64,000 nt of DNA from Bdellovibrionota bacterium (GTDB lineage: Bacteria > Bdellovibrionota_C > UBA2361 > CAKMMH01), in assembly GCA_050952645.1 (NCBI GenBank), contig JBMNLI010000007.1, positions 102,433-166,432 of the forward strand, read 5' to 3'. Position numbers and translations under genes: made by a program. Below the pieces are notes generated by a model, which did no database searches, was not told the DNA's origin, and was given only the letters and a program-made list of their open reading frames with translations. Numbering within the stretch: the first letter of the stretch is position 1; every line of letters starts with the position of its first letter. This document shows positions 17,175 to 46,960 of the stretch, piece after piece.

Positions 17175-17732
17175 ATGACTAGGAGATTTAAAAGAGAGAT
17201 AAAAGTTTCAAAAGATGGAGTTTTAGATACTTCAAATAGGCCTAATACATCGTCCGATAATTATTCTTATTACGTCCATTCTAAAGAGCGAGAATCATAC
17301 CAGCATAAAAAATCTGCTTGGGATCCTAGTCGCTCCTTTACTAATCAATACGAAGAAACGATAAGAAATAATATCGATAGCTTAACCTCATACACTAATA
17401 GCAATATAGATAGCAAAAGCGTATTCGGGGAAAATGTTTATGGGGGACAAGAGTTCGATATAGACAAAAGAATTTTAGGAAGCGATGACTTAGGGCGCAT
17501 GAATATCACTAAGGAAGAGTTAGATGATTTTCTAATTAAAAGAAGAAAACAAAATTCTTCACTATTAGCCCCCTTATTTAGTAGCAACTCTTATACACAT
17601 TTAAAAGTTAAAATTTTAATAATAATAGCAGGACTTTGCATTTTTGGAACTTTAATAGTTGGCGCTAAAACGACTAAGCATAGTAATTCCTTAACTTTTC
17701 AAAAAAGTTCACCTAAACAAATAATCAATTAA
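17175..17732 (+). CDS. Hypothetical protein with a C-terminal TM helix
   Basis: 185-aa ORF; ILIIIAGLCIFGTLIVG. Confidence 0.6.
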   Translation: MTRRFKREIKVSKDGVLDTSNRPNTSSDNYSYYVHSKERESYQHKKSAWDPSRSFTNQYEETIRNNIDSLTSYTNSNIDSKSVFGENVYGGQEFDIDKRILGSDDLGRMNITKEELDDFLIKRRKQNSSLLAPLFSSNSYTHLKVKILIIIAGLCIFGTLIVGAKTTKHSNSLTFQKSSPKQIIN

Positions 17733-31720: not shown

Positions 31721-32350
31721 ATGAATAAAGAAACTGCATTAAGTGATTTGCAACTAGTTAAACTTGTAGCTAAGGGTGATTTAAAAGCTTTAGAAGAGCT
31801 AGTAGAAAAGTATGAAACGAGAATTTTTAATTTGGCGTTTAAGTTTATGAATTCCGAGGAGGATGCCGAAGAGGTATCTCAAGATGTGTTTTTAACATTG
31901 TATCAAAAAGCAGCTAGTTTTAAGGGAAACTCTGCATTTTCAAGTTGGCTTTATAGGATAACCGTCAATGCTGCATTTATGAAATTAAGAAAGAGAAGGA
32001 GAGATTTATCTATTTCTATAAATGATCTTAGCACTCAAAACCAGCGAGATTGGATAGAAAGAGACACATCGTTTCATGCTTGTTCAGAATTTAAACTAGC
32101 GAATTTAGAGCTTGTAGATATTTTAAAAGCTGCGATTTTAAAATTACCAGATAGGTATCGCTCGGTTTTCGTTTTAAAAGATATAGATGGTTTATCTAAT
32201 CAAGAGGTGAGTTCTCTTTTAGAGCTTTCGATGCCAGCAGTAAAATCGAGACTACATAGAGCAAGAGTGATGCTTCAAAAAAGATTAAATGGGTGTTTTA
32301 GTGATTACGTAGGGACTATTAAGGAAAAAGAAACGGCACTTCACGTTTAA
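31721..32350 (+). CDS. ECF sigma-70 factor
   Basis: DAEEVSQDVF, FSSWLYRITVN, AVKSRLHRAR. Confidence 0.92.
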   Translation: MNKETALSDLQLVKLVAKGDLKALEELVEKYETRIFNLAFKFMNSEEDAEEVSQDVFLTLYQKAASFKGNSAFSSWLYRITVNAAFMKLRKRRRDLSISINDLSTQNQRDWIERDTSFHACSEFKLANLELVDILKAAILKLPDRYRSVFVLKDIDGLSNQEVSSLLELSMPAVKSRLHRARVMLQKRLNGCFSDYVGTIKEKETALHV

Positions 32351-32773: not shown

Positions 32774-33819
32774 ATGAAAATAAATAAATGTTGGCACCGT
32801 TCTTGCACTAACCAATCAACCAACCAACCAACCAATTAACCAACCAATTAACTAATAAGAAATATATCTTAAGTTTCTTCCTAGTTTTTAGTTTCGTATT
32901 TAGTTTTATATTTTGTGTAAATCCTGCTATTAGTCAGTGGAATTATGGGGGGAATTATGGGGGGAATTATAGTAGCGGTAATAATAAAAATACTGCTAGA
33001 TATGATAATCCTACTTATAGTATGGGAACTGGTGGTATGGAAACAGGGTATTATAGCATTCCTACCCAAGCAGGCTCCCAAGCAGGATATAGTCAAGAAA
33101 GCCGAGCGAGTGCTTATTCTTTAGCTTATTCAGAATATTATAGTTATTCGAGTATGAGTGTAAATAGTAGTGTAGGTAATGATGGAAGCTGCACTACCGA
33201 TGATGATTGTATAACGGGCGGTATATGTAATAATGGATATTGCCAATGCCCTATCGGTGCAAGCAAGATTACTGGAGTTAAAAAATCAAAAAGTGGAGCA
33301 AATGATAATATTCAAGTTTGTGCACCTTGCCCAGATGATATGCAACTCAAAGGTGGAGAATGTGTATGCCCAGACGATAAAGTTTTTGATGTAGTAAAAA
33401 ATATTTGTCTTCCTTGCCCAGATATTATGAAAGGGTCTATATATAATATAGAGACTGAGAGTTGCGAGTGCCCTGAGAATAAATATATTCTTACAGATGC
33501 TTTTGGTAGTAAACATTGTAGTGAATGTGACGGAGAAAATGCTAATTTAAATAGATATCAACTAGAAGATGGTAAAATATGTAAATGTGCAACTGGCGTT
33601 TACAGTGCAAGCAAGGGGGAATGTGTAAATTGTAATAAGATTATAAGAAATTCGCGTCAAGATGATGAATCTGGAGAATGTGTTTGCAAAGATGGATATT
33701 ATGCCGTACAAGATACTATTGAAAGATGTGTTATCGGGAAGTGTGAAAAAATTGCTAAAAAAGACGAAGTAAAGAAAGAGTTTGAAAACCAATCGTGGTG
33801 GAAGTTTTTGTTTGGGTAA
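32774..33819 (+). CDS. Secreted Cys-rich (EGF/furin-like repeat) protein, frameshifted in a (CAAC)n tract
   Basis: AAGGAG RBS and ATG 32774; a signal-peptide-like segment (KKYILSFFLVF...PAIS) is in frame with ORF 33022-33819, which has many CxCP..C repeats. Confidence 0.7.
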
Positions 33820-35482: not shown

Positions 35483-37459
35483 ATGGATAAAGAAAATATA
35501 AAACTACTAGCAAACACTGTGCGTGTGCTTTCAGCAGAAATGATAGAAAAAGCAAAATCGGGACACCCAGGAATGCCACTAGGAGCTGCAGATTTAGCAT
35601 CGGTTCTTTGGGCGTATTTTTTAAATTTTAATCCAAATGACCTTAACTTTGAAGGGCGTGATAGGTTTGTGCTTTCCTCAGGACACGCCTCGGCGATGCT
35701 ATATTCTTTTCTTTACTTATTTTCTTGTGGTTTAACTAAGGAAGACTTGAAAAATTTTAGACAATTAGGCTCAAAAACGCCAGGACATCCAGAGTTTGGT
35801 ATTACAGATGGTGTAGAGGTCAGCACGGGGCCTCTCGGCATGGGATTTGCTAACGGTGTAGGTTTAGCACTTTCAAGTAAGATAAAAAAAGCAAGGTTTA
35901 GTGAAAAGCTTTTCGATTATAATGTTTATGGCATTGTTGGTGATGGCGATTTAATGGAGGGGATATCTAGCGAGGCTGCATCTCTTGCAGGTCATTACGA
36001 GCTTGGCAATCTAATTTATATTTATGATAGCAACGGCATTACTATCGAAGGGAGCACGGAGCTTTCTTTTACGGAAAACGTAAGACAAAGATTTGAAAGT
36101 TATAATTGGCAAGTTTTAGAATGCGACGGGCAAAACGTAGAAGCGGTTTTTAATAGTTTAAATGCAGCTTTAGAAGAAAAATCTAAGCCTACGCTTATTA
36201 TAGCAAAAACTATTATAGGTTTTGGAAGCATAAATAAGTCTAATACTAGTAAAGTTCACGGAAGCCCTTTAGGAGAAGATGAAATAAAGCTAATGCGTGA
36301 AAATTTTAAAATGAGTGATGAAAGTTTTTCAGTTTCTAATAGCGTAAAAGAGTTTTGTCAAAAATTATTAGTTAATAAAATTAAATATTACGATGATTGG
36401 CAAAAAGAGTTTAACGAGTTTAAGAAAACTAAAAAATACGATGAGTACGTTTTTCAAAAAGAAAAAAATCTTCCTAAAAATTTAAAGCAAGAACTAATAA
36501 ATGAAATTTCTAATATTGAAAATGCCGCTACTAGAGAACTTTCGGGAAAAGCTTTGCAAGTATTATCAAAGAATTTGCCAAATTTAATAGGAGGTTCGGC
36601 GGATTTAGCATCATCAAATAATACTTATTTAGTAGATTCTAAGGATATTACAAAAAATGATTTTGAAGGTAAAAACATTCGTTTTGGTGTTAGAGAAAAT
36701 GCTATGGGAGCGATAATGAACGCTTTTTCTTATGAAAAGATGTGGTTTCCTTTTTGTGCTACTTTTTTAGTGTTTTCGGATTATTTAAGACCAACGATTA
36801 GAATTGCAGCTCTTTCAAAGCTTCAGACTTTATTTATTTTTACTCACGATAGCGTAGCAGTAGGGGAAGATGGACCTACGCATCAACCAGTAGAAACGAT
36901 ATCATCTCTAAGGTTAATCCCTAACTTGTATGTTTTTAGACCAGCGGATGGTTTAGAAGTGGCAATAAGTTATTTTAACGCTCTAAATTTAAAAGATAGT
37001 CCTAGTGCTTTTATCCTAACTAGACAAAAACTTCCAATAATAAAAAGAGAAAATGATTTTAATGTAGATGATATTTTAAAAGGTGCATACGTAGTTAAAA
37101 ATTCTAATGTTAAAGAAATCGTTATAGTGGCAACGGGTTCTGAGGTATCATTAGCTTTAGAAGCTTGCAAATTATTAGAAGAAAAAAATATATTTTGCAG
37201 AGTAGTTTCAATGGTTTGTATGGAAACTTTTTTAGAGCAAAGCGATGCGTATAAGGAAAGCATTATCCCAAGCGAGGCAAAAGTTATTTCTCTTGAGATG
37301 GGAAGCACTGCCATCTGGGGGCAGTTCGTTGGAAGAAAGGGTTTAGGTATCGGTATCGATGTTTTTGGAGAATCTGCACCTGCATCAAAGCTTTTAGACA
37401 AGTATGGATTTGCGCCTAGTAAGGTAGCTAAGAGAATAGAAACTTTTTTAGCTCTTTAA
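35483..37459 (+). CDS. tkt: Transketolase
   Basis: SGHPG, TPGHPE, GDGDLMEG, THDSVAVGEDGPTHQP. Confidence 0.97.
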   Translation: MDKENIKLLANTVRVLSAEMIEKAKSGHPGMPLGAADLASVLWAYFLNFNPNDLNFEGRDRFVLSSGHASAMLYSFLYLFSCGLTKEDLKNFRQLGSKTPGHPEFGITDGVEVSTGPLGMGFANGVGLALSSKIKKARFSEKLFDYNVYGIVGDGDLMEGISSEAASLAGHYELGNLIYIYDSNGITIEGSTELSFTENVRQRFESYNWQVLECDGQNVEAVFNSLNAALEEKSKPTLIIAKTIIGFGSINKSNTSKVHGSPLGEDEIKLMRENFKMSDESFSVSNSVKEFCQKLLVNKIKYYDDWQKEFNEFKKTKKYDEYVFQKEKNLPKNLKQELINEISNIENAATRELSGKALQVLSKNLPNLIGGSADLASSNNTYLVDSKDITKNDFEGKNIRFGVRENAMGAIMNAFSYEKMWFPFCATFLVFSDYLRPTIRIAALSKLQTLFIFTHDSVAVGEDGPTHQPVETISSLRLIPNLYVFRPADGLEVAISYFNALNLKDSPSAFILTRQKLPIIKRENDFNVDDILKGAYVVKNSNVKEIVIVATGSEVSLALEACKLLEEKNIFCRVVSMVCMETFLEQSDAYKESIIPSEAKVISLEMGSTAIWGQFVGRKGLGIGIDVFGESAPASKLLDKYGFAPSKVAKRIETFLAL

Positions 37460-37480
37460 GTCTAGAGTTTTTTATTTTTT

Positions 37481-37512
37481 GGTTCTTAAACCACCTTAAA
37501 GCGTGAAGAATT
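37481..37512. repeat. Minimal 32-bp MITE remnant
   Basis: GGTTCTT...CCACCTTAAAGCGTGAAGAATT flanked by a perfect TATTTTTT duplication. Confidence 0.65.
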
Positions 37513-37549
37513 TATTTTTTAAATAGTGTAAAATTCTCATTATTAGTTT

Positions 37550-37930
37550 TTATAATAAGTTTTGAGTTAAAAGTATCGTCCAAGGAGCTATTGCGAAAGT
37601 CATATATATTGCTATTACGCATTTAAGAGCAGCTTTTATCCAGTTAACGTGGTTTGATAAGTAAACTAATCCGATTATAGTAGCTACAGCTAAACTTTTT
37701 GAAGCTACTAGAGCCGCAACGGTTCCATAATTTTCCATAACGTTTCTTAAAAGAGCGTTGCCTTCCATGCTAGTTCCGAAAACATTCATTCCGATATTTG
37801 TTAAGATTGCATCAGCTATTTGTAAAGTTATAAGGATAACTCCAAGTGTTATAACTTCTTTTGAAGGTAAGCTACACGCTCTTGATATAGTTAGTTGCTC
37901 GTTTGATACGTTGCTAATGCTATTTGACAT
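37550..37930 (-). CDS. Small membrane protein (DUF5658-like)
   Basis: LQIADAILT...EGNALL...K pattern, 3 TM segments. Confidence 0.7.
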   Translation of the reverse strand: MSNSISNVSNEQLTISRACSLPSKEVITLGVILITLQIADAILTNIGMNVFGTSMEGNALLRNVMENYGTVAALVASKSLAVATIIGLVYLSNHVNWIKAALKCVIAIYMTFAIAPWTILLTQNLL

Positions 37931-38255
37931 AATCTTTTTTCCCCCTAAAAGTATATTATAGTCATAACCTTTGCAATTTATGCTTCAGAAATAAACTATT
38001 TTTTTTATTTTAAAATATTGATTTTTGCAAAAAAGCTAGAATTTTCAATGTGTTATATTTAGTGCTTATGTAAATTATTTAACACTGTATATTTGCAATA
38101 CACCCTTAGTATAGAGTTTTTTAAAAGTTTAAGCAAAAATTTTTTTGTATTAAGAATTAAAATTTATACGCTTTAAAGTATAGAAATTTGAAATAAGTAT
38201 TTTTAAAAGTTTGTTTTTTTTGTATTTGTATTTGTCCTTGTCTTTGTCCTTGTAT

Positions 38256-41162
38256 TTATTCTTGTCTTTGTGGTTTTTGTTCCCATATTAGCATTTCGAT
38301 ATTTCCTTTAGGTATAATTCTTTTAAACATTTTATTAAGAATGTGAAAAATCTCTTTTTTATATCTATTTAAAACATATCTTGAAATTTTAGTTTCTTTT
38401 CTAATTTCTCTGTCTGATTTAATTTTATTACCAAATAATCCTAGGTAATAAATAATTAATTTTTGTTTAGTATTATTTAAAATGGGGAATACCTCTTTGC
38501 TCTTAGTCTTTAAAGTATCATTAGATATAAAATCATTTGAACACATAATTAAAAACTTATTTAAAGGATTTCGTGGAAATGTTTCGTATAATTTAAAAAC
38601 TAACTCTAGCGTATCGTAAATTAGTTTTTTATTTTGTAAGGAATTTTTATTATTTTCATCATAGTTTTCATTTTTTTCATTTCTAATTTTTCCTAATCTA
38701 AAGCTTCTATAAAAATTTTCTTTTTGAGCAGGAGAAAAGTCCTCTATGGCTTTTAATAACTCTTGCTTTAGCTCATAGTATGCATCTAAAGAGAGTGCTA
38801 TCTTACGTTCTTTTATCTCTCTATAACAAAGTTCATTTAAATAGTTTATATTTAATAAGTTTTCTAGTTTTTTAACGGAATATCTTCTTATCTTACCAAC
38901 TGTAGATTTATTAGGTAAAGATAACATATAGGCTAGCTTAGTTGAGCTTCTGATTTTTTTGTTAAAAAGTCCGAAAGCGTAAATAGTAATAATTAGATGT
39001 TCCTTACTAGGTAGCACGAAAACGGAATTTTCTAACACTTCTTTATATGTTAAATTTTCTTTTTCTAAAAAATCTTTTCTATATAAATAAAATAATTTAC
39101 TTTTCTCTTTTTTAGTAAAAACATTGTTTGCAAAAAGCTTTCGTTCGACTAATAAGTATTTTTCTAATGGCATATTTAATTTTTTAGCTATTTGCTTTGG
39201 AGTTAAATGTTTAATAAATTTTAATTTAAATATTTTTTTGTCCCTAGGTTTTTTTATTTTTGCTTCTAGAGCCTTTAAGAATTTTAAATCTAGGTGTGTT
39301 AGAGCAACCTTAAGTTCTCTTAAGGTAGAAACCGCTTTTTTGTATTCTTTGTCGTACGTTTGAGCGTCGATAGATAGCTTTTTAATAATATCTTCTTTCG
39401 ATAATTTTTCTGAAGTAGTAATTCCGTGTCTTAAATTTATAATTTCAAATTGTAGCGAAGATAACATAAAAAGAGCATTTGTTAAAAGGGCTTTTCTTAT
39501 AGTTCTGTCTTTAATGTTTGCCTTAAATATTTCGCAAAGTTTAAGGAATATTTCTGGCTCGTATTTTTCTAATTTTTCGATAACTCGTCTTTCAATCTCG
39601 ATAAGTTTTTTTATATCTATTTGCAGGTTGTTTGCGATATCGTGTAAATTTCTAACGATGCGATTTTTAAAATCATATCTACATTTTGCAAATGATATTT
39701 CTTCCTTTGTTAAAATAGAGTATAAATTATGTAGTGTAGGGTATCTATTTTTTTCTCTATAATTATCTTCAATAGTTAATGAAAGTTTTAATGCTTTATT
39801 AAACATTTTAGGGTCTTTTTTAAAGATTATTTCGAGTGATTTTAAAATACAACTATCTATAGACTCAATTTTTAGGCCGTAAGTATCGCATAGTTCAAAT
39901 CTAGATTGCTCTTTATCTCCATCTAAATCTCCATCTTTATTTCCATCTAAATCTCCATCTAATCCAAAATGTTTTGAGATAAGTTCAGGGATAAGTTTTG
40001 ATTCAATTTTAGCGACACGTTTTTCTACGCGTAATAACCCATTTTTAATTTCATTTTTTATATCCTTGATTTCATCTTGCGTAATAAAATAGTCTATAGC
40101 TACAGATATAAGTTGTAATTTCCCTAAAACTTTTCGTCTATGAAAATGTGCACTAGGTTCAAAATCTGCTACAAGATATTGATATTTATCTTCTCTATAA
40201 ATTTCGCAAGAACTTTCTATAATATATCTTTCTTTTCCGTAAGTATAATTTAAAAATTTATAGGCAAGCTTTGCCGTATTATCGGCTGTAGGGTCATGTT
40301 CATCATTAATTCTATTATAATAATTTATATTAGGATTGCCTAGTTGCGAAAAAGGAGTAGGAGAAAGTACGCTTCCTTTATCATTATCTAAATTTCGTAT
40401 TCCTTGATTTTTATTCCTATATATATCTATAATGACGAAAGGTATTCTATTATAAAGATAAGTTGAAAAAGATGAGTTTTTTTCATGGTCATAACTATTA
40501 ATTAATTCTACAACTTCTAAAAAAACACTAGGGTAAAGGTCTTCGAGGCTTTTGTTTAAATTATGTTTTTTGATATGTCTTAAGATTATATTTTTAATAA
40601 TCCGTTCGTATGGTTTTATTATATCGTTTCTTTTTTGTGCTACAAAATTGTAGCTATTAAGAATGTTAGATAGTGCTTCTAATTTTTCTTTTTCCGTATT
40701 AGTTTTATTTAAATTTTCAAAAGTTTTTTTTATTCTACCCATAATATTTGAATAAAAAAATTCATTTGCGTGATGCCTTAGTATTTTTATATCACTACTT
40801 TCTAAGAGAGGTGGCGTCTTAAAAGATGGATCAGAAATTCTTTCTAGTGCTTCTTGTAGTTCTTTAAGATCTTGTCCGCTAAGATTAGTAAAATTATCTG
40901 AAATATCGTGATTTTTAAAAGATGTATACTCCCTAATTAGAGAGATGATATAAGGGGTAGCTTCTTTACTATTAAAAAACTGTTTTTTAAAGTTTTCCAT
41001 TTCTTGCTTATAGGAACTTATAGCTTTTATAGTTCCCTTATTATCAGGGATTAGATTATCGCCACTAAAAGATGCGCCTCTAGAAGATGTAGGAGAGGGG
41101 GGGAGGGAATGCTTCCTAAAATCATCGTGTTGTCTTATTGTATTTTCTCTATTATGTATCAT
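38256..41162 (-). CDS. Giant sigma70-like protein: one region 2 plus 6-7 tandem region-4 HTH units
   Basis: EDLY...INSYDHEKNSSFSTYLYNRI region-2-like motif; repeated L(T/S/P)xxExxII..(F/Y/H)G...S/T..I...L units. Confidence 0.7.
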   Translation of the reverse strand: MIHNRENTIRQHDDFRKHSLPPSPTSSRGASFSGDNLIPDNKGTIKAISSYKQEMENFKKQFFNSKEATPYIISLIREYTSFKNHDISDNFTNLSGQDLKELQEALERISDPSFKTPPLLESSDIKILRHHANEFFYSNIMGRIKKTFENLNKTNTEKEKLEALSNILNSYNFVAQKRNDIIKPYERIIKNIILRHIKKHNLNKSLEDLYPSVFLEVVELINSYDHEKNSSFSTYLYNRIPFVIIDIYRNKNQGIRNLDNDKGSVLSPTPFSQLGNPNINYYNRINDEHDPTADNTAKLAYKFLNYTYGKERYIIESSCEIYREDKYQYLVADFEPSAHFHRRKVLGKLQLISVAIDYFITQDEIKDIKNEIKNGLLRVEKRVAKIESKLIPELISKHFGLDGDLDGNKDGDLDGDKEQSRFELCDTYGLKIESIDSCILKSLEIIFKKDPKMFNKALKLSLTIEDNYREKNRYPTLHNLYSILTKEEISFAKCRYDFKNRIVRNLHDIANNLQIDIKKLIEIERRVIEKLEKYEPEIFLKLCEIFKANIKDRTIRKALLTNALFMLSSLQFEIINLRHGITTSEKLSKEDIIKKLSIDAQTYDKEYKKAVSTLRELKVALTHLDLKFLKALEAKIKKPRDKKIFKLKFIKHLTPKQIAKKLNMPLEKYLLVERKLFANNVFTKKEKSKLFYLYRKDFLEKENLTYKEVLENSVFVLPSKEHLIITIYAFGLFNKKIRSSTKLAYMLSLPNKSTVGKIRRYSVKKLENLLNINYLNELCYREIKERKIALSLDAYYELKQELLKAIEDFSPAQKENFYRSFRLGKIRNEKNENYDENNKNSLQNKKLIYDTLELVFKLYETFPRNPLNKFLIMCSNDFISNDTLKTKSKEVFPILNNTKQKLIIYYLGLFGNKIKSDREIRKETKISRYVLNRYKKEIFHILNKMFKRIIPKGNIEMLIWEQKPQRQE

Positions 41163-41219
41163 TTTTTTTATTTTTTTAGTTTAATCATTTTTTTTTATGA
41201 AAGTGGTTAAGTTAATTTG

Positions 41220-42386
41220 CTAACTCTCATTTGTATTTAGTCTAAATTCTCTTAAGATAGAAACCGCATTTTTATATTCTTTGTAGTACGTTTGAGCGTC
41301 GATAGATAGCTTTTTAATAATATCTTCTTTTGATAATTTTTCTGAAGTAGTAATCCCACGTCTTAAATTTATAATTTCAAATTGTAGCGAAGATAACATA
41401 AAAAGAGCATTTTTTACAAAAGATCTTTTAATATTTTGGCTTTCAACATTAGCCTTAAATATTGCGCAAATCTTAGGGAATGTTTCTAGTTTATATTGTT
41501 TTAATTTTTCTATAACTCCTCTTTCAATTTCAATAAGTTCTGTTATATCTGTTTTTAAATCATTTGCGACTTGGTTTAAGTCTTTAAAGATTCTATTTTT
41601 CCAATCGTATCTACATTTTAAAAACCTAGATTCTTCTTCTGTTAAAATAGAGTATAAATTATGTGGCAAAGGGTAGCTATTTTCTTTTCTAAATTCATCT
41701 TCAATAGTTAGTGAAAATTTTAACGCTTTATAAAACATTTTAGGGTCTTTAGAAAAAGTTCCTTTAAGTGCATTAAAAATATAAGTATCTATCGTTTCAA
41801 TTTTAAGACCAAAATCTTCATATAACTCAGCTCTTGAATATTCTTCATTTCCATCTAAATCAAGGTGTTTCGATATGATTTTGCGATAATTCTTTGGTAT
41901 CGTTGGTAGTTTTTCTTTGATTTCATTTTTTATATCATTGATTTCATCTTGCGTAGGAGAATGGTTTATGGCTTCTGATATAAATTTTAATTTTTCGATG
42001 GTTATTTGATATATTTGGTGTGCACGTTGATTCGACATAATACCAAGCGACATATAATATTTATATTCGTTTTTTGCGTAAAATCCGCACGAAATTTGCA
42101 TAATATATTTTTCTTTAAACTTTAGTGCATGTTTCTGATAAGTCTCCACAATTTTTAAAGCTTCTTCGTCTGGTGGAAATTCGCTAGCGTAATTTCTCTT
42201 AGGAGTAGTAGGAAATTCAGTATCAGAAAGAACTAGCGGATTTTCAGAAAGAGAACCGTGTCTTAAAGTTGCATGAAAGGTAGGGAATAAATGCTTGCTA
42301 AGATCATCATAAGTCGCTACATTTCCCCCTTGCTTAATGTTTTTCTGTTCTGCTTGTCGTCCTCTCGGTTGTTCTACTACTTGCAT
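41220..42386 (-). CDS. Region-4-repeat protein, partial paralog of 38256-41162
   Basis: C-terminal ~240 aa align with the middle of the 968-aa protein; 41258-41410 is near-identical to 39328-39480. Confidence 0.75.
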   Translation of the reverse strand: MQVVEQPRGRQAEQKNIKQGGNVATYDDLSKHLFPTFHATLRHGSLSENPLVLSDTEFPTTPKRNYASEFPPDEEALKIVETYQKHALKFKEKYIMQISCGFYAKNEYKYYMSLGIMSNQRAHQIYQITIEKLKFISEAINHSPTQDEINDIKNEIKEKLPTIPKNYRKIISKHLDLDGNEEYSRAELYEDFGLKIETIDTYIFNALKGTFSKDPKMFYKALKFSLTIEDEFRKENSYPLPHNLYSILTEEESRFLKCRYDWKNRIFKDLNQVANDLKTDITELIEIERGVIEKLKQYKLETFPKICAIFKANVESQNIKRSFVKNALFMLSSLQFEIINLRRGITTSEKLSKEDIIKKLSIDAQTYYKEYKNAVSILREFRLNTNES

Positions 42387-43126
42387 TTATTTATCTTTTA
42401 AATCAAACGTTAGTTTTAATTACATTTAAACGTAATATTATACTCGTTAAATGCTTTTTATCAAAATTTTAAATTTTTTTTGCCTTAAATATATGCTTTA
42501 ATTTTAGGCTCTTCATGTTTTAAGATGGGTTTTAGACCTTAAGAATTAGTATCATCAACCTCACGAAGCCCAAAAGAAAATTGACTTTAAAGAAATTTGC
42601 ATAAAATAAATTACTTTAAATATAGTTGTAATTTTTCTTTAAACTATAGATAGTTTTCTATAAAAGCCAATTTTCTTTTAAGCTAACCCCTAAAAACAAT
42701 TTTTTCTAATCCACCTAAAACGTGAAAGAATTAAAAAACTTTATGCTCGCTCTTTCTTTTTCTTATTATCATCGTCCCTCTAAATTATTCTTTCACGTTT
42801 TTAAGATGGGTTTTAGACCTTAAGAATTAGTATCATCAACCTCACGAAGCCCAAAAGAAAATTGACTTTAAAGAAATTTGCATAAAATAATTACTTTAAA
42901 TATAGTTGTAATTTTTCTTTAAACTATAGATAGTTTTCTATAAAAGCCAATTTTCTTTTAAGCTAACGCCCTAAAAACAATTTTTCTAATCCACCTAAAA
43001 CGTGAAAGAATTAAAAAACTTTATGCTCGCTCTTTCTTTTTCTTATTATCATCGTCCTCTAAATTATTCTTTCACGTTTTAAGGTAGGTTTTAGACCTTA
43101 AGAATTAGTATCATCAACCTCACGAA

Positions 43127-45025
43127 ATAGGGTAGAGCGAGGGCTATACCCTCTCCCTCCCGTCGCACCGTACGTACGGGTCTCGTATACGGCGCTCCAT
43201 TAATATAATATCAAGTAATACTCAGGTAATACGTCAAAGGGTCGATTAAACCAATTCGTTCCTTTGTTTTACGCCCCAATATTTTAGGGCTTAATGCATA
43301 ATTCACTACGTACCCACGAACTGCGTCTATACCAGCCGAGTCTGCTGTTAGCAACCTTATAGATTTCTTCAATTTCTAAAATTGCAACCAAGCATTCGGT
43401 TCAATTTCTTAAGATTTAGATAGATTCGTCTCGGCAATTTCCACTGTTTAAGTATTATAACCCTCACTTTGTGTCTAAGCCATTGACCATATTTATCTAT
43501 AAAAGTCTTAAGAGTTCCTATCTTATAATAGTTTATCCAACCTTTAATTAACCAGCTTAGCTGTTGAAATTGTCGAACCTAACGTTCGTGCCATTGCCTT
43601 CCGTCTACAAAGAATTTCTCTAGTTTTATCATAGAGTTTTCGTTTGCGATCTTCAGCAGGTTTACATTTCCAAGTTTTATACCCACTCTTCCAGTAGGTA
43701 AAGCCTAAGAAAGTGCTTTCCGTCGGCCTAGAGATTTTACTCTTACTTGAATTAATTTTAAGTCGTAGCTTACGCTCCAACCAACTCGCAACGGACTTCA
43801 TTACTCTATTAGCAGCCTTTTCACTTCTAACAAATATATTACAGTCATCGGCATATCTAACAAACTTAAGTCCTCTTGCTTCCAGTTCCTTGTCGAGCTT
43901 ATCAAGGTATATGTTAGATAATACTGGGGATAATGGACCTCCTTGCGGAACTCCTTTCTCACTTACAGTAAACAATCCATCTTCCATTATACCAGCTCTT
44001 AAGAACTGTCTTATCAATCGTAGTGTCTTCGCATCTTTGATGCGTTCCCTGATTATCGAAATTAATTTGTCGTGATTAACAGTATCAAAATATTTCTCTA
44101 TGTCTAGGTCTATAACCCAATCATAGCCTCTTTTCAAGTACTCAAGAGTTCTATATACTGCTAGATGGCAATTCCTTCTAGGTCTAAAGCCATAGCTACT
44201 ATTACTAAAAATACTTTTCGTATCCGCGTGCTAGTATTTGCGCTACCGCTTGTTGAATTACCCTATCTACTACTGTAGGTATTCCTAAAGGTCTCATCTT
44301 ACCATTAGCTTTAGGTATATACACTCTCTTAACTGGACTCGGCTTATAATTCCCTTCACGTATCTGAGATTTTATCTCTTCTCTGTGAACGGCAAAATAG
44401 TCTTCAAGCTCATCTACTGGCATATCATCTACACCAGATGCACCTTTATTTCGCTTAACAGCCTTTATAGCCTCATCTATATTTTTGTCTGATATAATTA
44501 GTTCAATCAATTCCACCTGTTGCTCCTCCCTCTGTTTGTAAAGCTACTAGAAAACACCCCCTCTATCTTCTGCCCCCACAGGTTACGTTCCTGTTTGTTA
44601 GGCATATCTTCAATTTCGGACTCTTCTAGCCTTGCTTACAGTGATTCACAATATATTAACGTTCAACCCTTCCTTGAGTGGTGTCTCAAGTACTATGGTA
44701 TCAACTGACTTCCAGATATAAGCTTTATATCGCACGTGCATAGCACGCTATCTGGACCTCCCGGGGTAAGGCATAGTTCTTTCACCAGACAACCTCCAGA
44801 TTTACTCGTTTGGTTTTACGTTTGTCTTTAGGGCTTCGGTTTGTAGCGCAACCTCACCCACCATTTAGCCTTGTATCTGGTTTCTGTTCGTAGGCTCCTT
44901 GGTTTTGATCCGCCACTTCCTTCACTCTAAACATTACTGCTTCGAGCTTGTGGCATCACTACACTTGGTGACAACTACCCGTGACGGGACTTTCACCCGC
45001 TAGAACTATGTCGTGCCCGGCACAC
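43127..45025 (-). mobile_element. Group IIC intron, copy 2
   Basis: Reverse complement of 26006-27899 with five single-base insertions. Confidence 0.92.
43211..44516 (-). pseudogene. ltrA: Intron RT/maturase with four +1 frameshifts (possibly sequencing error)
   Basis: Fragments match copy 1; extra bases near 44207, 43571, 43371 and 43313 each lengthen an existing base or run. Confidence 0.8.
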
Positions 45026-45314
45026 GCCCAAAAGAAAATTGACTTTAAAGAAATTTGCATAAAATAAATTACTTTAAATATAGTTGTAATTTTTCTTTAA
45101 ACTATAGATAGTTTTCTATAAAAGCCAATTTTCTTTTAAGCTAACCCCTAAAAACAATTTTTCTAACCCACCTAAAACGTGAAGAACCTAATTTTATTAG
45201 TATTTTTGATTAGTATCTTGCGATGATTTGTAAAGTATTTTAACATTTTCAATGTTTAAAGGTTTATTCGAGGATAAATTCAAAGACGAGTTTAAAGATT
45301 TTTAAGGAGCGTAT

Positions 45315-46960
45315 ATGAGTATAAAAATAGTGTCTACTAAGCCATATTCAGAACAAAAACCTGGAACCGCAGGTTTAAGAAAAAAAACAAAAGTTTTTAT
45401 GCAGGAAAATTATATTGAAAATTTTACGCAGTCGGTTTTAGATGTATTAAAAAATAGAGGTCTAAATTTAAATAATGCTAGCTTTGTTATAGGTGGAGAC
45501 GGGCGCTTCTACTATAAACAAGCCCTAGAAATTATTGCAAAAATCATAGTAGCAAATGGAGCTAAAAAATTATTTATCGCTAAAGACGGGCTTTGCTCTA
45601 GCCCCGCAATATCTACGATTATAAGAAAATATAAATTATCTGGTGGTTTTATCCTTACAGCAAGCCATAACCCTGGGGGCATAGATGATGATTTCGGTGT
45701 TAAATACGAAGTGGAAAACGGGGAGGTGGGGCGCCATCTGAAATTACTGATGCAATATATGAAAATACGAAAATTATAAAAGAATATAAAACTATAGTTT
45801 GCGATAATATAGATATTAGTAAACTTCATAGTCAAAAAATATCTAATACTGAAATAGAAATTATAGATGGCTACATAGATCACGTGAAGCTTTTAGAAAC
45901 TATCTTCGATTTTGAAGCGATAAGACAATTCTTTAAAGATGGATTTACTCTTCGCTTTGATGCAATGAATGCAGTTACGGGCCCTGAGGCTAAATACCTT
46001 TTTGAAGAAGTTTTAGGAGCTAAAAAGGGGTCTGTCGTTAGAGGCGTTCCGATGGAGGATTTCGGGGGAGTTCACCCAGACCCTAATTTATCGTATAATA
46101 AAGAGTTGGTAGACTTTATGTATTCGAGCGAAGCTACGGATTTAGGAGCTGCCTGCGATGGTGATGGCGATAGAAATATGATAGTAGGTAGAAACTTTTT
46201 CGTTAGCCCTGGAGATAGTTTAGCGCTTATCGTAGAAAGAGCCAAAGAATGTATCGAAGGCTTTTCAAGCGGTCTTTTAGGTGTTGCTCGGTCGATGCCG
46301 ACCTCTAGACAAGTAAATAAGGTTGCCGATGCACTAGGAATAAAAACTTACGAGGTTCCAACTGGTTGGAAGTTCTTTGCGAACTTAATGGACGCAAATA
46401 AATGCTCAATTTGCGGAGAAGAAAGCTTCGGGACTAGCTCAGACCATATTCGTGAAAAAGATGGTCTCTGGGCAATCCTTTGCTGGATAAATATTATGGC
46501 AAAAACGGGGCTATCGGTAGAAGAGCTAATGACTTCACTTTGGAAGCGATACGGTAGATATTATTACCAAAGACAGGATTTCGAAAATCTAGATAAAGAT
46601 GTGGCTAATAGAATGTTTGAAAGTGTTAGAGAAAATATGAAAAGTTATATAGGACAAAATTTCGCAGAAAGCACTATAACGGATATCGACGATTTTTGTT
46701 ATAAAGATCCTATCGATGGTAGTATAACTTCTAATCAAGGAATTAGGATAAGTTTAGCAGATGATAGTAGAGTGGTATCTTAGATTATCTGTGCACTGGT
46801 TCATCAGGAGCTACGCTAAGAGTATATTTAGAAAAATATGATGCAAAAGATGTTTTTATCAGACCCTAATAAGAAATTAAAATCTTTAGGACAAGAAGTG
46901 CTAAAAATTTTTAAATATAAAAGAAAGATTTAATTTAACAGAGCCTACCGTAACTACTTA
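45315..46960 (+). pseudogene. pgm: Phosphoglucomutase with several frameshifts (possibly sequencing error)
   Basis: QKPGTAGLRKK, TASHNPGG, DGDGDR, GEESFG, HIREKDG, tail EPTVTT*; frame breaks near 45725 and 46780-46925. Confidence 0.88.

Follow-up and report, generated by a model that had tools for sequence, protein, structure and literature searches.

σ factors of the σ70 family are described with one copy of region 4, which in the accessible portion of PMC4598750 is presented as a single four-helix helix-turn-helix (HTH) domain that binds the −35 element and the β flap. The extracytoplasmic function (ECF) σ factors are delimited, in the accessible portion of PMC7826278, as proteins containing only σ2 and σ4, at most 50 amino acids (aa) apart and with no cryptic σ3 domain, and an extract of PMC11119718 defines cyanobacterial σ classes with duplicated essential domains. 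A full-text literature search, from which subscription journals are mostly missing, found no published work on tandem region-4 arrays in σ factors. Such an array is described here for a Bdellovibrionota bacterium (GenBank assembly GCA_050952645.1, contig JBMNLI010000007.1, positions 102,433 to 166,432 of the forward strand); this stretch of 64,000 nucleotides (nt) is referred to as the window, and positions are given in its coordinates. Its minus strand encodes a 968-aa σ70-family protein, P0001 (38256..41162), and upstream of it a 388-aa paralogue without region 2 (41220..42386), both at the coordinates proposed in an earlier, sequence-only reading. P0001 is composed of a region 1.2-like helix, a helical insert, region 2, a short linker and eight region-4-like modules, and across its relatives one scaffold occurs with 3, 4, 5, 8 or 10 modules.

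The σ70-like identity suggested by the sequence-only reading is borne out by sequence profiles, by the predicted fold, by an orthologue with a canonical region 4 and by a predicted interface with the β′ subunit of RNA polymerase. The region-2-like segment that had been placed at about aa 180-250 coincides with a match to Pfam Sigma70_r2 (PF04542) at aa 182-251 (40410..40619, on the minus strand like the other features of the pair; E 8.5e-8, 32.3 bits against a cut-off of 24), and P0001 also passes the superfamily model TIGR02937 (52.9 against a cut-off of 42.9). The 968-codon frame is open at a GC content of 25-27%. In the predicted fold, region 2 is preceded by a region 1.2-like helix and a helical insert of about 100 aa (together aa 34-170; 40653..41063); the insert is placed where RpoD has its non-conserved region, and profile comparison gave no sequence-level match for it. 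Region 2 is followed by a linker (aa 252-295; 40278..40409) that resembles region 3.2 and, from the comparison of spacings, is too short for a σ3 domain; linker and module 1 together align to FliA with E 0.006. The span from region 2 to the first region 4 is 181 aa in P0001, compared with 220 in its orthologue from the related genome G002, 233 in RpoD and 221-256 in 27 of 28 reference σ factors. The σ3 length has thus been lost in P0001.

The remainder of the protein consists of eight region-4-like modules, the first and the seventh being the weakest. The tandem array announced by the sequence-only reading is therefore real, and its count of 6-7 units was one or two short. Module 1 (aa 296-353; 40104..40277) is the original region 4, canonical in the G002 orthologue and degenerate in P0001, where part of its HTH has been lost. 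Module 2 (aa 384-447; 39822..40013; repeat D5) contains a 36-nt low-complexity insertion and is recognised by hhalign with E 2e-6 and, in a second scan, 1e-9. Module 3 (aa 478-535; 39558..39731) is detected by a region-4 hidden Markov model (HMM), by profile-profile scans and by NCBIfam on an isolated slice. Module 4 (aa 561-620; 39303..39482) bears the block that is near-identical to the upstream gene and matches the fold of SigF region 4. Module 5 (aa 629-680; 39123..39278) gives a sub-cut-off match to Pfam Sigma70_r4_2 (E 1.6e-4) and E 1.6e-5 with TIGR02937, and module 6 (aa 710-771; 38850..39035) has hhalign E 5e-4 and a fold match to RpoS region 4. Module 7 (aa 803-862; 38577..38756), the most degenerate, reaches hhalign E 1.6e-3 and is supported mainly through the homologue P0004, in which the unit scores 15.3 bits by the region-4 HMM. 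Module 8 (aa 888-948; 38319..38501) matches the C-terminal part of the NCBIfam SigK model as a slice (E 4e-5) and has hhalign E 5e-6. Most modules carry the short loop of an RpoD-type region 4.

Pfam, sliding windows included, finds a single region-4 unit in P0001 (module 5, aa 639-667), below the cut-off, whereas scanning the family alignment profile against profile yields eight separate region-4 peaks, none of them in aa 1-270. The HMM was built from a region-4 alignment of 50 other σ factors of the window's genome and its relatives; it finds five units of at least 5 bits in P0001. Twenty shuffles gave none, and the reversed protein a single peak, at 6.8 bits. In a null test restricted to the columns of P0001, E≤0.0025 was reached by 17 of 36 real windows, by 0 of 625 column-shuffled windows and by no reversed window; module 1 windows scored 0.006-0.008, compared with 0.011 for the best null. 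When NCBIfam was run on slices, σ C-terminal matches were obtained for 4/8 slices of the long protein, 3/4 of the short one and 0/7 controls. That a region-4 domain is present after region 2 is supported by the profile-profile peaks, the fold matches and the G002 orthologue (P0009, 709 aa, five modules), which passes both Pfam cut-offs, with region 4 at 40.5 against 24.1 bits, and has a canonical recognition helix in module 1. Self-BLAST of P0001 detects no internal repeat, and the modules are therefore not recent sequence repeats.

A single-sequence AlphaFold2 model of P0001 was unusable (predicted local distance difference test, pLDDT, 37); with a four-sequence alignment the pLDDT rose to 61. 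In the latter model, aa 34-251 superpose on the region 1.2-2 fragment of RpoS (5h6x; Z 11.5, root-mean-square deviation (rmsd) 2.5, 96/96 aligned) and on pro-SigK (Z 11.6, rmsd 2.3, 98 aligned), and aa 32-252 on RpoD 105-451 of 7xya (204 aligned, rmsd 6.5). Among the modules, the fourth matches SigF region 4 (8jzt; Z 8.1, rmsd 1.3, 57/57) and the sixth RpoS region 4 (6fi7; Z 7.0, rmsd 2.8, 76 aligned), Z values of a size that is usual for helical models and that were counted only jointly with the sequence evidence; the structure-comparison (VIA) matches hardly covered modules 5, 7 and 8. Foldseek returned no match to the model at E≤0.001 in PDB or BFVD, and the PDB entries listed read as σ subunits of polymerase or anti-σ complexes. 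A complex of the region-2 half only (aa 35-255) with residues 1-343 of β′ from the same genome scored 0.72, compared with 0.00 for the best control. The mark for a pass had been attained by 116 of the 157 solved complexes used as reference and by 2 of the 215 mismatched pairs; the pass obtained here may stem from likeness to solved σ-polymerase structures. The runs share at least 67% of contacts, with a partner pLDDT of 76 or more, and the predicted interface places aa 207-218 and 171-183 of P0001 (region 2.1-2.2) on the β′ clamp helices at 278-298. Modelling, proposed earlier as a check on the protein alone and with core polymerase, thus predicts a region 1.2-2 fold and, for this half, clamp docking. 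Multivalent polymerase binding, as put forward in the sequence-only reading, would be a putative property, the complex covering the region-2 half alone.

The protein family is small. Against 1.84 billion representatives, phmmer returned only four proteins at E 0.001, two of them from the window itself, and word-indexed searches returned three proteins each. The relatives include P0004 (1168 aa, ten modules, two of them extra at the C-terminus), P0003 (622 aa, region 2 and four modules, from a Bdellovibrionota bacterium) and P0008 (558 aa, region 2 and three modules). The genome of P0003, G016, belongs to the order of the window's genome and to a different taxonomic family. A search with the module array alone gave matches in 2 of 91 genomes from the order. 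With the family profile at 1e-12, 11 of 124 genomes from the phylum gave matches: four of these hold family sequence (G000, G001, G002 and G016), and the other seven have 252-265-aa frames of ordinary σ size. The search of related genomes that had been recommended therefore finds the architecture in few of them, with 3-10 modules. No relative was found in JGI metagenome contigs, viral contigs or 30-128-aa proteins, and phage records matched the σ core only (37 records, none covering 80%). No RNA data set was listed as containing the sequence, a result with no bearing on expression. The top Atlas feature match (score 0.94) is a 799-aa cluster whose 137 members are mostly Bacillota as far as recorded, and it serves as a lead only.

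The array is old and position-conserved, and it is unstable in number. P0001 and P0004 are collinear and in frame over all eight modules and their linkers at about 31% identity, and modules cluster by position across proteins that are 20-32% identical, requiring seven changes, the minimum, compared with a mean of 17.9 after shuffling; this grouping implies that the array is older than the split of these proteins. In the module tree, module 1 is placed among genuine region-4 domains, and a derived group with weak support unites modules 2-4 and 6-8. Expansion by domain duplication, as first suggested, is hence supported, as an old process and not a recent one.

The locus can be followed in related genomes. 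Flanking DUF5658 and phosphoglucomutase-like genes are adjacent in all three relatives of the same taxonomic family (phosphoglucomutase, like the labels transketolase, PilT/PilU, flagellar genes and the insertion-sequence types, is a presumed assignment recognised from sequence), and in G002 the intact collinear orthologue P0009, with its full-length 220-aa core, occupies the same place. The syntenic loci indicate a gene that is native to the family of the window's genome and unstable in it; the idea of a cassette foreign to this genome was dropped once these orthologues appeared. In G016 an insertion sequence interrupts the second gene, which is also truncated after module 3; a third copy is represented upstream by its last module only. 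A long stretch is identical between the two G016 genes, and P0005 combines the front of one with the end of the other, a pattern that would fit conversion or recombination between tandem paralogues, although P0005 could also be an assembly chimera. The G016 copy was likely acquired by cross-family transfer, judging from its GC content (0.28-0.31 compared with 0.36-0.43 in the left flank) and from the DUF5658 and phosphoglucomutase proteins, which are 47% and 57% identical to those of the window against 91% for the σ-locus DNA. At either end of the G016 locus lies a repeat of about 100 nt that is specific to G016 (L021:11616-11725 and 17297-17451), and both outer genes are cut off there.

The 388-aa protein contains three full modules (2-4), preceded by the rear of module 1, and shares 52% identity with P0001 over aa 265-619 of the latter; Pfam detects no region 2 in it, in agreement with the sequence-only reading. 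It begins with the N-terminal tip shared with P0001, followed by an unrelated in-frame segment. The near-identical block noticed earlier as about 150 bp extends over 300 nt at 86% identity (39311-39610 and 41243-41542), the best part matching at 113/120 nt, and would fit gene conversion between the two paralogues. Window positions 40454-42116 are 90.7% identical to G016 DNA over 1668 nt, and the G016 counterpart of the 388-aa gene is P0003, which has its own region 2. According to the alignment gap, the in-frame segment of 191 nt (42117..42307) replaces about 875 nt of this counterpart, comprising region 1.2, the insert and region 2. No further copy of the segment was found in its own genome or in the three G016 loci; in sequence data of run X2, from another study, it is intact with 0 differences, alongside G016-like variants. 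Since the counterpart is complete with region 2, the 388-aa gene arose by replacement of its front half and would be a damaged duplicate, not a purpose-built inhibitor. The region-4-only antagonist proposed earlier is right in that region 2 is absent, but by origin the protein is not a dedicated antagonist, and no positive evidence speaks for that role, which it might still have taken on secondarily. The C-terminal part of the gene shows purifying selection relative to G016, with a ratio of nonsynonymous to synonymous rates (dN/dS) of 0.51 (p 0.017; all such values being rough Nei-Gojobori counts), a signal that may predate the loss of region 2.

The preferred reading, to which slightly less than an even chance is given, is that P0001 is an accessory, fast-evolving σ70 factor whose tail likely forms an extended DNA-binding arm replacing normal −35 reading. 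Region 2 is predicted to dock on core RNA polymerase; the basic tail of region-4-derived HTH modules (calculated isoelectric point, pI, 9.5 for aa 290-968) would bind DNA upstream of the promoter, acting instead of normal −35 reading, and P0001 would direct promoter-specific initiation. This reading is preferred because the prediction keeps the polymerase-binding half, because the native −35 reader has degenerated and because the tail combines a basic composition with conservation by position. Several observations weigh against it. The predicted template modelling score of 0.32 means that the mutual arrangement of the modules cannot be read from the model, and the docking result shows likeness, not binding. 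None of the modules of P0001 passes a Pfam cut-off, the canonical recognition-helix motif is absent from all eight, and the homologues P0003 (pI 6.6) and P0008 (pI 5.4) lack the basic character. G001, of the same genus, has a frameshifted pseudogene remnant with an N-terminal piece, region 2 and one last module, and G003, one of two other members of the taxonomic family, lacks the gene, with 278 bp between the flanking genes. Finally, comparison of the long gene with its G016 copy gives a dN/dS of 0.77-1.7, which does not differ from 1 (p 0.17-0.43).

In a broader and less probable form, P0001 might be a σ factor with a built-in activator, in which one polypeptide would dock on the polymerase and read a long upstream signature or sense phage proteins that attack region 4, the number of modules being retuned by duplication, conversion and transfer. 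The natural series, with and without the σ3 length and with and without region 2, makes the role of the extra region-4 copies testable and could yield long-site, orthogonal promoter readers.

The alternative that survives best, although rather improbable, is that P0001 is a dispensable σ paralogue under relaxed selection in small AT-rich genomes, with an array generated by duplication slippage and now of little or no function. Several of the observations listed above are what such a relic would leave behind, i.e., the remnant in G001, the empty site in G003, the insertion-sequence disruption and truncation in G016, the region-2 loss in the upstream gene and a dN/dS near or above 1, and the terminal branches of the family reach 1.7, compared with 0.01-0.3 for FliA. 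It is harder to reconcile with the frame maintained between P0001 and P0004 over eight modules and linkers, with modules that cluster position by position, with purifying selection on the upstream gene or with a polymerase-binding surface that is still predicted.

It is doubtful that the tail is instead a protein-interaction array, in which region-4 decoys or sensors for phage or competitor proteins attacking host region 4 would control the fused σ factor on engagement. Region 4 is a known anti-σ target in the accessible portion of PMC4598750, and several features of the family are those typically shown by conflict genes, namely rapid divergence, 3-10 copies, duplication, homogenisation resembling conversion, loss and a likely transfer across families. 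The 56 region-2 codons show 14 nonsynonymous changes and 1 synonymous change, which as a sign of positive selection is not significant (p 0.2), and the G002 orthologue matches the defence-system σ factor MzaA below the cut-off (67 bits against 800). However, the generic RpoD model gives a stronger match (87.7 bits), housekeeping genes and not a defence island surround the locus, and viral contigs yielded no relative.

A similarly low probability is assigned to P0001 binding core polymerase without initiating, and competing with or repressing other σ factors, while the 388-aa protein titrates the flap or DNA sites. The loss of the σ3 length and of part of the module 1 HTH, with the β′ contact still predicted, would suit such a competitor, as would a short gene that is in frame and recurs unchanged in run X2. 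Nevertheless, natural ECF σ factors initiate without σ3, according to the accessible portion of PMC7826278, the G002 orthologue keeps a full canonical core, and the counterpart of the short gene has region 2, so that its selection signal may be older than the loss. An assembly artefact is unlikely, as run X2 matches 37000-39372 with 0 differences, with no listed piece covering the whole stretch.

Upstream of the pair, the best promoter-like match (42437..42464, minus strand, 11 of 12 positions) precedes the two genes, and matches of this kind occur in the region at chance level (26 compared with 24.6 expected). Next to it lies a dispersed repeat, about 200-280 nt long and with a 22-nt inverted repeat inside; it is tandem here (42518-43125 and 45026-45190) and has 129 BLAST matches genome-wide, 43 of them of at least 150 nt. 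A copy of it contains a group II intron (43126-45025, minus strand; Rfam RF02001 and RF00029) with its reverse-transcriptase frame split in two. Ten copies of the intron in the genome are at least 99% identical, one being interrupted; the other copies are also flanked by the dispersed repeat, which suggests a stem-loop-targeting intron landing in a small mobile repeat. The phosphoglucomutase-like gene (45315-46783, plus strand) is in two frames here and a single open reading frame of 545-546 aa in G001-G003. On the other side, an ordinary ECF σ factor (31721-32350, plus strand) is followed by a cysteine-rich protein (33022-33819, plus strand) with a eukaryote-type EB module (Pfam PF01683, 26.3 bits against 24.3). 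Elsewhere, a stand-alone 89-codon frame (G000:C12:331988-332254, minus strand) encodes a single region 4, near-canonical but altered in its recognition helix.

Among the σ70 classes, the family forms one clade on long branches (support 96/89 and 98/93 in two trees) and adjoins FliA in the ECF-rooted tree (92/96, not starred). Of three in-order groups, FliA is the one that region 2 of P0001 matches best (hhalign E 4.7e-8), pro-SigK is the top PDB sequence match (E 1e-9) and also among the top fold matches, tied with SigB and RpoS, and thus there is likeness to group 3 (FliA/WhiG, SigK/SigE, SigB/F/G), the SigK/SigE part of which consists of sub-cut-off profile matches, the trees containing no Bacillota sequence. 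Unlike group 3, P0001 has the ~100-aa insert before region 2, no σ3 length and seven extra region-4 modules, and it misses all subfamily cut-offs (for FliA/WhiG, TIGR02479, 27.6 against 189.6 bits). The family also lies outside the FliA clade, and the window's genome has a separate, ordinary FliA-like gene. With RpoD and RpoS (groups 1 and 2) P0001 shares the predicted layout of region 1.2, insert and region 2, and the G002 orthologue scores best against RpoD_Cterm and against a profile of the order's orphan σ factors. However, the score (87.7 bits) is far under the RpoD cut-off (354), the family lies outside the RpoD-like clade (99/97), the core is shorter than that of RpoD, and none of the eight modules has the −35 recognition motif. 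As to origin, the trees lean to the FliA side and the profiles to an RpoD-like one, with long branches and biased composition.

Genomes of the order hold many long orphan σ factors of 400-1270 aa with one region 4 (L024, L054-L057, L059-L072); in L059 (951 aa) a helicase-like domain seems to be joined to a σ core, and a FliA-like core forms the end of L072 (1272 aa). In contrast to P0001, 17 of 17 of these long RpoD-like proteins examined show one strong region 4. The remaining comparison is with ECF σ factors that have C-terminal extensions. The distance from region 2 to the first region 4 in P0001, about 44 aa, fits the ECF definition, and a long C-terminal extension is present; the orthologue core and the tree, in which two ECFs form a separate clade (100/100), do not fit, and in neither P0004 nor P0009 was it possible to demonstrate a σ3 domain by itself. 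Because the core of the G002 orthologue is 220 aa, i.e., of σ3 length, the short spacing of P0001 is derived, and, unlike that of an ECF σ factor, its extension is made of copies of region 4.

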